This document shows, one piece after another, positions 24,442-29,573 of a DNA stretch of 64,000 nt; within the stretch, counting starts at the first letter, position 1, and the number at the start of each line of letters is the position of its first letter. The notes under the pieces were generated by a model. It did no database searches. It saw only the letters and a program-made list of their open reading frames with translations, and was not told the DNA's origin. This DNA comes from an uncultured delta proteobacterium (GTDB lineage Bacteria; Desulfobacterota; Binatia; Binatales; Binataceae), in contig CAVXXK010000001.1 of assembly GCA_963765675.1 (NCBI GenBank), positions 288,001 through 352,000 of the forward strand, read 5' to 3'. Position numbers and translations under genes: made by a program.

Positions 24442-24876
24442 TTACGGAGTGGCTGGCGAAGCGCCTGCGTCTGGAGCTGCCGGAGGAGCTGCTGCGCCTG
24501 CGTCCGCACCGCCTGCTGCCGCACCCGAGTCGGACGCTGCGGCCGCGTGGTGGTGATGATGATAATGGCGCACTACATGATGCGGTGCCGAGGACATCGT
24601 CTTTGCCGCGATTGCCTCTGCGCGATCCGCAGCCGCCTTGGCATCGCTGGCCGCCTGCTCGACGCGGCTTGCAGCAGCCTGGGCCGAAGCCGACGCCTGC
24701 TGAGCCTTCTGGCTCGCCGCTTCTGCGCGTGACGCGGCCTGGTCAGCGCGGTTCGCCGCGTTGACTGCGCGCTGCGCCGGATCCGGCTGGTTCGAGCAGC
24801 CCGCCACCAACGCAAGGGCCAATGCAGCCCCGGCCAGAGCAACCAGTTTCGAAGATTTTCTCATTAACCCTTCCAT
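24442..24876 (-). CDS. Alanine-zipper (Lpp/OprI-like) lipoprotein with a His-rich and Ala/Pro tail
   Basis: AGGAGG RBS; lipobox VAGC; Ala-rich heptads; HHVVRHYHHHHH. Confidence 0.75.
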   Translation of the reverse strand: MEGLMRKSSKLVALAGAALALALVAGCSNQPDPAQRAVNAANRADQAASRAEAASQKAQQASASAQAAASRVEQAASDAKAAADRAEAIAAKTMSSAPHHVVRHYHHHHHAAAASDSGAAAGGADAGAAAPPAAPDAGASPATP

Positions 24877-25107
24877 TTTTTCCTCCTGGGAAATTGCGCG
24901 GCGTCCCGAAGTCCACAGGATCAGACAACCGCCGTACGACCTTTGATTTCTCTCACCCAACCGGAGCTTCTGGGTAACTTTACACTAAGGACTGCCGCCA
25001 CTGCAACGACATTCCTTTGATAAGTGCCCTAAAGAACCCCACATTTCCTCGCAGATTTATTATTAACGATCGCCGTTCGGCGGTAAACCCCCAATTATGG
25101 TTTGCGT

Positions 25108-26829
25108 CTAGAAGTCATCGCCGCCGCCGAAATCGTCCATTCCGCCCATTCCACCCATACCTCCCATACCTCCCATTCCACCCATGCCTCCCATTCCACC
25201 CATCCCGCCCATGCCTCCCATTGCGCCGGGCATCGCGGCAGCGCGCGCCGGTTTCGCGGGGGCGTCGGCGATTGCCACTTCGGTCGTCAGCATCAGCGAG
25301 GCGGCGCTCACCGCGTTCTCGAGCGCGCTGCGGACCACTTTGGCCGGATCGATAACGCCGCTCGCAACCAGGTTCTCATACTCCTCGGTGCGCGCGTTGA
25401 ATCCGAAGTCGCCTTTGCCTTCCTTGACCTTGTTGAGCACGACGCTGGGCTCGTGACCGGCGTTGCGCGCGATCTGGCGGAGAGGATCGCTCATCGCGGC
25501 TGCGACCAACTTCGCGCCCTGCTTGCGCTCCTCGGGCAGACGCAATGATTCGACCGCGCTGATCGCGCGTACCAGCGCGACACCGCCGCCGGCGACTATT
25601 CCTTCTTCGACGGCGGCGCGCAACGCATGCACTGCATCATCGACGCGCGCCTTGCGCTCCTTGAGCTCGACCTCGGTCGCGGCGCCGACCTTGATCACGG
25701 CGACGCCACCGGAGAGCTTCGCCAATCGCTCTTGGAGTTTTTCCTTGTCGTAGTCCGAGGTCGTGTCCTCGATCTGGCGGCGAATCTGCGCGACGCGCGC
25801 GTCGATGTCGGACTTCTTGCCAGTGCCGCTGATGATCGTCGTGTTGTCCTTGTCGATTATCACGCGGCGGCATCGCCCCAGGAGCTTCGAGTCCACATTC
25901 TCGATCTTCATGCCCAGCTCTTCGGCGATAACCGTGCCGCCGGTCAGAATCGCGATATCCTCGAGCATCTCTTTGCGTCGATCGCCGAAGCCGGGCGCCT
26001 TGACCGCCGCGACTTTGAGCGTGCCGCGCAGCTTGTTCACCACCAGCGTCGCAAGCGCTTCGCTCTCGACATCCTCGGCGATGATCAGCAGCGGACGTCC
26101 GCCCTGCACGATACTTTCGAGCAGCGGCAGCATCTCGCGCAGGTTCGAGAGCTTCTTGTCATGCAGCAGGATAAGCGGCTCTTCGATCTCGCAGGTCTGT
26201 CGCTCCGGATTGGTGATGAAATAAGGCGACAGGTATCCGCGGTCGAAACGCATTCCTTCGGAATGTTCAAGGACGGTCTCGAGCCCGCGCGATTCTTCCA
26301 CGGTGATGACGCCTTCCTTGCCGACTTTGTCCATCGCATCGGCAACGATCTTGCCGAGCTCTTCGTCGCCGTTGGCGGAAACCACCGCGACCTGCTGCAT
26401 CGTCGCGTGATCCTTGACCGGCCGCGCGCTGGCCGCAATCGCCTCGACCGCTTTGGCCGCGGCCGCTTCCATCCCGCGCTTCAGATCGATCGGCGCAAAG
26501 CCCGCCGCAAGCAGCGCGACGCCTTCGCGCACCATTGCTCGCGCGAGGACGGTGGCGGTCGTGGTGCCGTCGCCGGCCACGTCGGAAGTTTTCTGCGCGA
26601 CTTCGCGGATCAGCTTCGCGCCCATGTTCTCGAAATGATCTTCGAGTTCGATTTCCTTGACCACCGTGACGCCGTCCTTGGTGACAACCGGCGCGCCGAA
26701 GCTGCGCTGGATCATCACATTGCGGCCTTTGGGTCCAAGGGTGACGCGCGCGGCGTCGGCGACAATATTTGCGCCGGCGACGATTCCGGCGCGGGCGCGT
26801 TCGTGCAGCTCAACCGTTTTGGCTGGCAT
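25108..26829 (-). CDS. groL: Chaperonin GroEL (no adjacent groES)
   Basis: [47 protein letters not shown]; GGM tail. Confidence 0.97.
25138..25218 (-). repeat. Coding 9-bp tandem repeat, about 9 GGM units
   Basis: Units of the form GGNGGNATG with synonymous variation. Confidence 0.85.
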
Positions 26830-27015: not shown

Positions 27016-27417
27016 ATGGTGTTGGCAAAAGTATCAGCAAGACGTCTGAAATTTCCTCGCCGCAGCGCGATGCTCGCAATCTGTTTATGCGGCGGTCTGG
27101 GCGCCGCGGCGATGGTCTCGGCGCATGCCGCGTCCGCAGCCCAGTTCACTCCGCAACTCCATCTCCGCCTGGCGCAGGACGATTCCTCATCCGCAGATCA
27201 GTCCGAAGTTCCGCCCGAGCAGGTTGAGAAATACATCGCGATCTATAAAGCGACGCAAGCCAATCACAGCCTGACGGTCGAGCAGGCCGCCACCCAGCAG
27301 GGGCTAACGGTTTCGCAGTTCCGCACGCTCGAAGGCAAGATCGAGCGCGACGACGCGTTGCGCGCGCGAGTTCGCAAGGCGCTCAGAAACAGCACCAGCA
27401 AGACTACCGAGCCTTGA
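27016..27417 (+). CDS. Secreted hypothetical protein (DUF4168-like)
   Basis: GGAGGG RBS; signal peptide; GLTVSQF..IERDDALRARV. Confidence 0.65.
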   Translation: MVLAKVSARRLKFPRRSAMLAICLCGGLGAAAMVSAHAASAAQFTPQLHLRLAQDDSSSADQSEVPPEQVEKYIAIYKATQANHSLTVEQAATQQGLTVSQFRTLEGKIERDDALRARVRKALRNSTSKTTEP

Positions 27418-27529: not shown

Positions 27530-27811
27530 CTACTTGGTGACCGAGGTCGAGAAAGCCGCTTCGAGCCGCGACACCGCGTCATTGGCCCGGCGCACCGAAT
27601 CCTCGGCGCCGCTGGCCGCGTCCTCAGCCTTCTTGGCGGCGGCGTCGGCCTGAGCCGCCGAAGCCTCAGCCGAGTTGGCCGCTGCTTCTGATTGGGTCGC
27701 GTCCGCTTCAGCCTTGTCACTGGCCGCGTTGATGGTCTTCATGTCCGGTCCGCAAGCGCTCAAGAACGCCACGGCTGCCAGAACTCCGAGCACAGTTGCC
27801 AACCTTTTCAT
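27530..27811 (-). CDS. Lpp/OprI-like alanine-zipper outer membrane lipoprotein
   Basis: AGGAGG RBS; lipobox LSAC; Ala heptads; ends RLEAAFSTSVTK with a C-terminal Lys. Confidence 0.8.
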   Translation of the reverse strand: MKRLATVLGVLAAVAFLSACGPDMKTINAASDKAEADATQSEAAANSAEASAAQADAAAKKAEDAASGAEDSVRRANDAVSRLEAAFSTSVTK

Positions 27812-28121
27812 TCAGAAATCCTCCTACCAGTTCCAGTCCAACCGCCAGTCCCGGTTTTATTCCGCTGTCGAACGCGTTGGAAAAATCCTAGGGTCCATCA
27901 AACACACCCTGAAATAGTTACAAATCGTTTTGACCAACGCAAGACTGAAAGATCCCTGGGGGACAAATGCCGCCGGATTAGCCAACCTGTTTCAACAGCG
28001 GTTGACAGACAAAACCTGCTACAGTTATCGTTCGATTGGTGAGCCTTAATGGCTTCGAGACTTCGGTAAACCTTCACAGTGATTTCATCGAAATTGAGAG
28101 ATTGAGGTTGGGGTCCAGCGG

Positions 28122-29573
28122 ATGTCAACGACTATCACCAGCGAATGCATCAATTGCGGCGCCTGCGAGCCCGAATGCCCTAATACCGCGATCTACGCGG
28201 GCGGAGTCGAATGGGAGCTCAACGGTGCGGTAAGCCCCGCGATCGCGCAGGATATTTTCTATATTGTGCCGTCCAAATGCACCGAATGCGTGGGCTTTCA
28301 CGATCATGAAGCCTGCGCCGCCGTATGCCCCGTAGATTGCTGCGTGCCTGACCCGGCCAATCCTGAGACTGAGGCTGTGTTGCTGGCCCGCGCACGCGAG
28401 CTTCATCCTGAAGAGACTTTTCCCGACGACGCGCCTTCGCGCTTTCGCAAAGAAGGCGGCGGCGCGGCGGCGCCCGCAGCGGCACCTGCCGCGGCGTCAA
28501 CGGACGGTGCGGGCGCATCGGCAAATGGCGCGGCGGCGGCACCTAAGCCTGCGGCAGCGCCGGCACCTGCCAAAGCGGCCCCGGCGCCTGCGGCCGCGAT
28601 GGCGCCCGCAATTGCAGCGCCGATTGCGATGGTGAATCTGCCGAAGGATATCGGCGCGCTGCCCGGTCCGCTCGGCGAGAAGCACTTCTCCGGCGAACTC
28701 GAAGAAGATTTCGACACCGTCTTGGGATGGGTCGATACCGCGCCGGTCCTTCGCGCTCCGCTTCCGGTACGAATCGCACTCAGGCTCGGCGAGCCGATCC
28801 TCGGCGCGATGCCCGACGGCGTCAAGGCGTCGCTCGAAGAGGCGGTCGGAACGACGGCGGCCTTCTCGCGCGCACGCTCGACCGCGCTCAACATGATCTT
28901 CAACCTGATTCTTTATCCCGCAATCTTCATTGCGATCTCGGTCCTCCTGATCGGCGACCCGCTGTTTTCGCTCCACACCCGGGGATGGATTCTGCTCGGC
29001 GTCCTGATCGCGGCGGCCGAAGCCGCTTGGCGCCTGCGCGAGGGCGTCGTGCATGCAAAGCCCGCGTCGGAACTGACCTATCGCGGATGCTGGTACGGTC
29101 TGGCGCTCGCTCCCATCGGCAGCCTGCTCACTCGAGGCGGCAAACGCAAAACCGAGCGCAAAGTCGCCTTCGACGGCTTCGAAACCGATATCCACGACGA
29201 CAAGACCGAACGCGACCGCCGCTACGGCACGGTTTATACCGTGCGCGAGTTTGCGAACGCATACATCGTGCGGCTCGAGATGCCCCGCAAGATGCCGGCG
29301 TCGTCGCTCAAGCGGATTTGGAACCTGCCCGACGAGATGCCCGACTACGATTACAACATGGTTCTCGGCGACAGCGTGCTGGCGATAAGCGCGAGCGTCC
29401 GCGGCGAGGCGATCCGCAAGCTGTCGTACGTGTCGTCGGCGTTTCCGGCGGATTTCCTGACCCGGATTGAGTTCGGCACGCCAGTCGCCACGTTCAAGCA
29501 TCGGATGCAGAACAAGATCCTCGACGTGATCGTGATGAAAGGCGAATCCGACCAACTTCGCAGCGCCGCTTAA
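28122..29573 (+). CDS. YfhL-type 2[4Fe-4S] ferredoxin fused to a membrane domain and an Hsp20-like domain
   Basis: CINCGACEPECP and CTECVG..CAAVCP; Ala/Pro linker; 2-3 hydrophobic helices; C-terminal beta-sandwich pattern. Confidence 0.8.
   Translation: MSTTITSECINCGACEPECPNTAIYAGGVEWELNGAVSPAIAQDIFYIVPSKCTECVGFHDHEACAAVCPVDCCVPDPANPETEAVLLARARELHPEETFPDDAPSRFRKEGGGAAAPAAAPAAASTDGAGASANGAAAAPKPAAAPAPAKAAPAPAAAMAPAIAAPIAMVNLPKDIGALPGPLGEKHFSGELEEDFDTVLGWVDTAPVLRAPLPVRIALRLGEPILGAMPDGVKASLEEAVGTTAAFSRARSTALNMIFNLILYPAIFIAISVLLIGDPLFSLHTRGWILLGVLIAAAEAAWRLREGVVHAKPASELTYRGCWYGLALAPIGSLLTRGGKRKTERKVAFDGFETDIHDDKTERDRRYGTVYTVREFANAYIVRLEMPRKMPASSLKRIWNLPDEMPDYDYNMVLGDSVLAISASVRGEAIRKLSYVSSAFPADFLTRIEFGTPVATFKHRMQNKILDVIVMKGESDQLRSAA

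Follow-up and report, generated by a model that had tools for sequence, protein, structure and literature searches.

A conserved gene joins an AlvinFdx-type ferredoxin, a disordered leash, a predicted membrane hairpin and a divergent HSP20-fold domain

We analysed a 64,000-nucleotide stretch from an uncultured delta proteobacterium (positions 288,001 to 352,000 of contig CAVXXK010000001.1, assembly GCA_963765675.1; hereafter, the window) and found that the open reading frame (ORF) at 28122..29573 on the plus strand, 483 codons without interruption, is one conserved gene. Its product consists, in order, of a ferredoxin, an Ala/Pro-rich leash, a helical region with a predicted membrane hairpin, and an HSP20-fold domain (Table 1). 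The initial annotation of this DNA had read the ORF as a ferredoxin, transmembrane and Hsp20-like fusion with all parts in one frame, and this layout is upheld by our analysis. The parts are of known kinds; the architecture itself is new, and our full-text searches of the literature found no paper describing it. Also new are an HSP20-fold clade that is invisible to Pfam and tied to ferredoxins, and a pair of leashed ferredoxins that evolve in concert; the same literature searches found neither of them.

Table 1. Positions in the window of the gene, its parts, its promoter and the neighbouring groEL (aa, amino acids)
Feature	Position	Strand	Basis
Whole ORF, 483 aa + stop	28122..29573	+	Single frame; full-length homologues
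AlvinFdx/YfhL-type 2[4Fe-4S] ferredoxin domain, aa 1-110	28122..28451	+	Pfam; NCBIfam; superposition on 1rgv_A; family definition in PMC2984482
Disordered Ala/Pro-rich leash of variable length, aa 111-172	28452..28637	+	pLDDT <50; alignment gaps
Conserved juxtamembrane helical region with LPKD..LPGP..EKHF.GEL..DF motif, aa 173-249	28638..28868	+	Invariant columns; AlphaFold helices
Predicted membrane hairpin (helix 250-277, short loop, helix 284-304)	28869..29033	+	Hydropathy; flanking Lys/Arg counts; AlphaFold
Third, weaker hydrophobic helix, aa 326-338, then a basic stretch	29097..29135	+	Hydropathy; AlphaFold
Divergent HSP20-fold (alpha-crystallin/CS-like) beta-sandwich, aa 356-475	29187..29546	+	AF2; Foldseek; VIA; hhalign
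C-terminal tail ending Ala-Ala	29547..29570	+	Alignment of 30 close homologues
Sigma-70-like promoter TTGACA-18-TATCGT	28002..28031	+	Consensus scan; alignment of 62 upstream regions
groEL	25108..26829	-	TIGR02348, 801.8 bits; long C-terminal GGM repeat

A homologue search returned 3067 of 8000 scored candidates at E<=1e-3. The best 120 of these 3067 were nearly all near full-length, with 64-93% identity over the aligned part, and the few shorter proteins among them included records that their sources mark as partial. Where the homologues were named, the names were Candidatus Binataceae/Binatus or "ferredoxin", and one carried the Joint Genome Institute (JGI) automatic annotation "ferredoxin/HSP20 family molecular chaperone IbpA". 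Among genomes of the class, for which labelled relatives suggest the name Binatia, a match was present in 114 of 151 (105 of the 132 of high quality), representing 17 of 19 families. In most of these 114, closed and near-closed genomes included, the matching frame was 450-530 aa long and the match took in both the membrane region and the C-terminal domain. When 301 genomes sampled from the phylum were searched, strong matches came from the class alone: 8 of its 10 genomes had one, and no genome outside it did. A tblastn search of 54 genome loci, each above 12 kb and from a metagenome-assembled genome (MAG) of Binataceae type, found at least half of the ORF in 50. Across the class, most genomes with the gene have it at full length, so that the short forms, which lack the ferredoxin or give short matches, look derived; they occur in the window's family (genomes G410, G353 and G362) and in G337, G389 and G234.

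It is hardly credible that an assembly error or an indel produced this ORF out of two or three genes that are in fact separate. The near full-length homologues come from many independent assemblies and, with the long loci and the class-wide frames, exclude this explanation, including the joining of two genes by an indel that the initial annotation had allowed for. Logan contigs from four DNA runs, mapped to the gene, were short pieces that showed no insertion or deletion; none bridged the gene, and we found nothing that favours an artefact. One low-depth Logan contig (run X1) joined position 28824 to 29399, skipping 574 bases with 22 letters on one side of the joint, and probably represents another organism or a chimera.

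The N-terminal module proved to be a complete YfhL-type ferredoxin of about 110 aa, as initially annotated. Pfam Fer4_7 matched aa 9-73 (E 9.3e-7). The NCBIfam YfhL model NF033683 scored 83.0 bits over aa 1-92 of the protein against a cut-off of 86, and a six-frame search of the genome, in which neighbouring in-frame pieces were added, raised the score to 88.9 bits, flagged as over the cut-off. The eight cysteine ligands, in two motifs of CxxCxxCxxxCP type (C9, C12, C15 and C19-P; C53, C56, C65 and C69-P), were invariant in all 30 aligned homologues. Among known structures, 1rgv_A, a ferredoxin of Thauera aromatica, matched the full-length AlphaFold model best (Z 11.8; root-mean-square deviation [rmsd] 1.5 A over 80 of 80 residues; 42% identity). 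AlvinFdx is defined by 6-8 extra residues that separate two of the Cys ligands in cluster II, and by a partly alpha-helical piece of 20-43 residues beyond the last ligand; its clusters are described as having "extremely low" potentials, and it is a housekeeping ferredoxin whose gene is essential in Pseudomonas aeruginosa (PMC2984482). The fused module has C56-x8-C65 in cluster II, where x2 is usual, and a predicted helix at aa 84-94 after the last ligand. It resembles the family (Allochromatium vinosum Fdx, P. aeruginosa Fdx1, Escherichia coli YfhL and T. aromatica Fdx) in both cluster motifs, in the six-residue insertion and in the helical C-terminal piece, all within its N-terminal 110 aa. 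Unlike these free proteins, which have at most 100 aa in the published inventory, it is covalently leashed to a membrane/HSP20-fold body in a 483-aa fusion, so that it is a domain of AlvinFdx type and does not belong with the free proteins, and it carries an insertion of about 14 aa between its two motifs.

The long Ala/Pro linker reported initially corresponds to aa ~111-172, which are predicted to be disordered; the AlphaFold confidence (predicted local distance difference test, pLDDT) was below 50 at aa 110-148 and 150-173. This leash, of 50-110 aa, differed in length among the 30 aligned homologues. Confidence rose in the juxtamembrane region, where the block-mean pLDDT was 53 at aa 171-180 and mostly 82-95 beyond, with one block at 72, and AlphaFold placed helices at 197-203, 214-222 and 232-242. 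Neither a Pfam match nor a known family was found for aa 173-249; an ESM Atlas search with aa 170-340 gave no usable match, and the matches of a structure search with the full-length model fell on the two end domains and not on aa 173-340.

Kyte-Doolittle analysis with 19-residue windows gave values above 1.3 at aa 253-287 (peak, 2.55 at 259-277) and in a second stretch at aa 280-299 (peak, 1.55). AlphaFold helices at 250-277 and 284-304, with a shorter third at 326-338, match the two to three hydrophobic helices first described for this ORF. Many residues of the membrane region were invariant among the 30 aligned homologues, and E300 in the second hairpin helix was conserved at 90% or more in the family alignment. 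Lys and Arg numbered two before helix 1, one in the short loop, four after helix 2 and eight after helix 3. Because these counts in the flanks of the hydrophobic helices fit such a topology, both ends of the protein are predicted to lie in the cytoplasm; the third helix probably sits at the membrane surface and does not span it.

The C-terminal domain truly belongs to the HSP20-like superfamily, though it has diverged very far within it; structure matches and a profile-profile comparison together established this. Sequence searches were silent: Pfam at E<=10 gave no match to this domain in the whole protein, the last 143 aa or 30 homologues; PF00011 (cut-off, 20.8 bits) was matched by 0 of 71 diverse representatives at E<=0.01; and PDB sequence searches, by phmmer with the domain and with the family profile, returned no Hsp20 match. 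The AlphaFold model of the domain, built on a 64-sequence alignment (mean pLDDT 87.8; predicted template modelling score [pTM] 0.77), was confident and contained a lead-in helix, seven strands and three more short helices, of which one lies in the tail. Foldseek gave 12 PDB matches at E<=1e-3, all of them small heat-shock proteins (sHSPs) among those listed, with 3w1z_B the best (2e-4) and CS/p23 domains next. The VIA search of 48,161 chains, which is independent of Foldseek, had sHSP alpha-crystallin domains in its top 12 rows (Z 8.2-8.5; 5ds1_A with an rmsd of 3.0 over 81 residues), followed by the CS domains of Sgt1 (8.1), PIH1D1 (7.6) and Ncb5or (7.2) and then by the Hsp20-like domains of All4481 (6.6) and Get3d (6.0); these Z values lie at a "middling" level on the scale of the tool, and the assignment draws its weight from how uniform the list is in family content and from the independent hhalign test. 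In that test, the 64-sequence family alignment was compared with eight canonical Hsp20s, four from the same genome and four from other genomes, and gave 93.95% probability and E 1.5e-7 over 107 columns. It paired the very alpha-crystallin strands named in the initial annotation, as well as the Arg of the "F.R..LP" strand, so that the strand order first read from the letters was borne out. Within the phylum, four genomes also had canonical sHSPs that the family profile matched weakly (E 4e-4 to 9e-4), and the ESM Atlas leads for the domain were its own Binatota cluster (0.91) and Hsp20-like clusters (0.86).

The domain shares with sHSPs (Hsp16.5, Hsp14.1, HspA and IbpA) the alpha-crystallin beta-sandwich, its strand order and the aligned Arg. 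Many of its residues were invariant among the 30 homologues, and three features mark it out: a conserved helix, ER-x-RRYG, that leads into the domain; an insertion of 16 aa that ends in MPDY; and the motif SFPxDF. Unlike canonical sHSPs, it has this lead-in helix, carries the insertion directly behind the "LEMPR" strand, bears a membrane hairpin plus a ferredoxin in place of the N-terminal arm, and has no PF00011 match; unlike bacterial sHSPs, it has a helix at the place of the beta6 loop. The C-terminal I/V-x-I/V motif bridges and defines sHSP oligomers. This motif was absent: the tail after the last strand reads GESDQLRSAA, and the motif was not found in the consensus of the 30 homologues. 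The terminal Ala-Ala was unchanged in 30 of 30 close homologues, and we infer, from the likeness of this end to the ALAA end of the organism's transfer-messenger RNA (tmRNA) tag, at most a possible degron role for it. Aragorn located the tmRNA gene at G000:C1:217207-217563 with the tag peptide ADNNGYALAA; a second, overlapping "permuted" call at the same place is probably spurious.

In fold, the domain was about as close to CS/p23 proteins (PF04969; Z 5.8-8.1) as to sHSPs, with no Pfam match. Human Ncb5or (6mv2), in which a CS domain lies between b5 and b5-reductase domains, provides a precedent for an HSP20-fold module in a redox protein. The CS domains of Sgt1, PIH1D1 and Ncb5or are eukaryotic, give no match at the sequence level and have no membrane anchor, unlike the domain studied here. 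The ArsA-type ATPases Get3d and All4481 (8elf and 3igf) also contain an HSP20-like domain and show the fold fused to a non-chaperone enzyme; unlike the 483-aa fusion, they have a different partner domain, lower scores (Z 6.0-6.6) and no ferredoxin. Four canonical PF00011 small heat-shock genes were found in the same genome on contigs C5, C1 and C7 (89, 81, 79 and 26 bits). The fusion gene is not among these four matches, and it is therefore not the only alpha-crystallin-fold protein of its genome.

When 1.84 billion representatives were searched exhaustively for relatives of aa 170-483, just 157 proteins reached E<=1e-3. A Pfam scan of 71 of the 157 showed that 24 carry Fer4-type domains, in five arrangements: a YfhL-like N-terminus (n=9), an N-terminal single-cluster Fer4_13 (n=5), a compact N-terminal dicluster (n=5), Fer4_13 followed by the domain and then a Fer4 array (n=3), and the domain followed by a Fer4 array (n=2). 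The ER.RRYG, MPDY and SFP motifs were common to all these relatives. In P0185, P0207 and P0210 the membrane region was matched and the ferredoxin was of another type; here, the body was kept and the ferredoxin swapped. In the distant relatives P0246, P0249, P0202, P0237 and P0265, the domain is fused to a polyferredoxin; these proteins are soluble and have Fer4 arrays with no leash or membrane hairpin, unlike the 483-aa fusion. Repeatedly, then, the HSP20-fold domain has gained or retained some ferredoxin as a partner.

The genome encodes three YfhL-type ferredoxins: a free protein of 111 aa, the 483-aa fusion and a 280-aa paralogue. The paralogue (L171:934-1776, minus strand; genome G000, contig C1, ~1.34 Mb, outside the window) has a ferredoxin identical to that of the fusion at 108 of 110 residues (DNA, ~88% identical), after which come an Ala/Pro leash, a zinc ribbon of the form CxxC...CxxC and a coiled coil; Pfam placed the ribbon and coiled-coil part in no family with confidence. 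The free AlvinFdx-type ferredoxin (L170:1444-1779, minus strand; contig C3) is 76% identical to the fused module and adjoins a gene for an ApbC/Mrp-type Fe-S cluster carrier (L170:1887-2951, minus strand; PF10609, E 8.6e-100; NCBIfam ApbC, 318 bits against a cut-off of 348). The paralogue's tail was present in 109 of the 151 class genomes. Both genes occurred together in 107, the window-type gene only in 7, the paralogue only in 2 and neither in 35, counts that are not independent because the genomes are related; the absences were distributed over at least nine families. Both genes lacked the ferredoxin module in G410 and G362, two members of the window's family from other genera.

In a tree built from the ferredoxin modules of nine genomes (17 in all), the two fused modules belonging to one genome formed a sister pair in 6 of 6 genomes, with support of 93-100 or with identical sequences, and five free ferredoxins grouped apart (support 85/90). 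Identity between fused modules was 85-100% within a genome, compared with a median of 72-75% between genomes; at the DNA level, the pair was 98% identical over 395 nt in G370 and 77-86% identical in other genomes. The sister pairing and the identity pattern indicate that the fused modules evolve in concert through episodic gene conversion.

YfhL ferredoxins are normally small stand-alone proteins, as the initial annotation stated; this holds in general, but the class departs from it in part. Among the 107 genomes with both genes, YfhL-type matches numbered two in 54, three in 41, more in 3 and one or none in 9, and in the 54 the two fused modules were the sole YfhL-type ferredoxins found. Among the 35 with neither gene, there were none in 19, one in 15 (among them G378, which is flagged as unpublished and on which no conclusion rests) and two in 1. 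A strict complementarity, in which a free ferredoxin occurs only where the fused modules are absent, was rejected on these counts, with at least three matches in 44 of the 107 and none in 19 of the 35.

The gene lies 1293 bp from groEL, which is upstream of it; the lone groEL at about 1.3 kb in the initial annotation was thereby verified, as no groES-sized ORF (>=60 aa) was found beside it. In the 54 long loci, the flanking genes were rimI (52; assigned by TIGR01575, 112 bits), carD (51), ispD (47), an Lpp/OprI-like lipoprotein gene (46) and groEL (40). Because it was observed in one lineage only, the synteny with groEL is a weak sign of a functional link. The putative promoter, ~90 nt upstream of the start codon, matched the consensus at 10 of 12 positions; across 62 upstream regions, its -35 hexamer was conserved at 90% or more and its -10 region at 70-90%. 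A consensus search allowing up to three mismatches found no controlling inverted repeat of chaperone expression (CIRCE) element in the window. No RNA sequencing run was found to contain this DNA.

Our preferred reading, which is tentative and falls somewhat short of an even chance, is that the protein carries electrons while tethered to the membrane, and that its HSP20-fold domain acts as an adaptor or assembly module, comparable to the CS domain seated between the redox domains of Ncb5or, and not as a stand-alone heat-shock holdase. The ferredoxin would be a working low-potential carrier, held near the membrane by the flexible leash (a "ferredoxin on a leash"); the hairpin would give the address, and the HSP20-fold domain, as a ferredoxin-associated module, would dock a partner or oligomerise, with the fusion working alongside the zinc-ribbon paralogue. 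The carrier and adaptor roles are suggested by the recurrence of the domain with ferredoxins in 24 of 71 representatives and five arrangements. The ferredoxin is taken as the main function because the fused modules are the sole YfhL-type ones in 54 of 107 genomes and AlvinFdx is essential in P. aeruginosa, and a paired system is suggested by the co-occurrence, the concerted modules and the joint ferredoxin loss in G410 and G362. The sigma-70-like promoter, the absence of CIRCE and of a PF00011 match, and the four canonical Hsp20 genes elsewhere argue that the protein is not heat-shock-like. Several points weigh against this reading. We identified no partner and no electron donor or acceptor; the membrane topology is based on hydropathy, charge and AlphaFold helices only; and the co-occurrence counts carry the dependence noted above. 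The 19 genomes with neither gene and without any YfhL-type ferredoxin indicate that such a ferredoxin is dispensable in the class. In 66 of 80 metagenome loci, which were chosen using the ferredoxin-less form as the query, a ferredoxin-less and anchor-less form occupies the same slot, and the existence of these positional orthologues, together with the short forms in G410, G353 and G362, suggests that the beta-sandwich can work without a ferredoxin in cis. Chaperone activity is also possible, the HSP20-fold domain being homologous to true holdases.

That last point is developed furthest in the proposal of the initial annotation, a redox- or Fe-S-sensing membrane chaperone, in which the tethered ferredoxin, through the condition of its O2-labile clusters, would switch the activity or availability of a holdase at the membrane. 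The Hsp20 homology found by hhalign and the fold matches are real, groEL is near and syntenic in 40 of 54 long loci, the ferredoxin-less orthologues suggest that the HSP20-fold domain has a role of its own, and the Ala-Ala end, resembling that of the SsrA tag, could be that of a stress factor controlled by proteolysis. We nevertheless regard this role as somewhat unlikely: the I/V-x-I/V motif and the PF00011 match are missing, the conserved promoter is sigma-70-like with no CIRCE, the groEL synteny is limited to one lineage, and four canonical Hsp20 genes lie elsewhere in the genome. One cluster would suffice for a sensor, yet relatives carry four-cluster arrays, and the domain family is fused to polyferredoxins that resemble electron wires; the zinc-ribbon paralogue, moreover, has the same ferredoxin module without a chaperone-like domain. 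A bolder form of the carrier reading, which we consider unlikely, makes the HSP20-fold domain a dedicated ferredoxin-docking module and the fusion and paralogue together a membrane hub that replaces the free housekeeping ferredoxin in many genomes; two identical leashed low-potential ferredoxins, homogenised by gene conversion, would then be offered to shared partners. It is quite unlikely that the protein is an Fe-S maturation or protection factor whose HSP20-fold domain holds or shields an apo- or oxidised ferredoxin, either its own or a free one, during cluster insertion or repair. The joining of the domain to many ferredoxin types and the ApbC/Mrp-type carrier gene beside the free AlvinFdx would fit such a factor, but no Fe-S assembly gene adjoins the fusion gene in the 54 long loci, and the membrane anchor would be left unexplained. 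All of these functions are inferred, and the remaining probability is reserved for other roles.

With this gene, the HSP20 superfamily gains a membrane-anchored, ferredoxin-coupled clade unseen by Pfam, and the HSP20 fold is shown to have entered iron-sulfur electron-transfer proteins repeatedly. In the Binatia, an abundant group without cultured members whose DNA turns up in metagenomes from soil, peat and wetlands, the leashed-ferredoxin pair occurs class-wide. If the adaptor reading is true, the gene opens a way to study how the cell directs electrons of very low potential to particular sites; if the chaperone reading is true, it represents a new coupling of Fe-S or redox status to membrane protein quality control; and if the docking-module reading is true, the alpha-crystallin fold has a new job.

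In the 66 short-form loci, rimI was located downstream in 56 (median gap, 26 bp), the lipoprotein gene was present in 47 and carD in 39. None of the 66 contained a separate YfhL-like ORF, which ruled out simple gene fission at the locus. Two small Ala/Gln-rich, lipoprotein-like ORFs flank groEL in the window, both on the minus strand: that at 24442..24960 had no Pfam match, and that at 27530..27811 resembles Lpp/OprI alanine-zipper lipoproteins (32.7 bits; cut-off, 43). A small ORF with a hydrophobic N-terminus (~27105..27417, plus strand) lies between groEL and the latter and was present in 37 of the 66 metagenome loci. The alignment of the 62 upstream regions also revealed a second conserved block upstream of the promoter, at ~27900..27960, with the consensus AATAGTTGCAAA.

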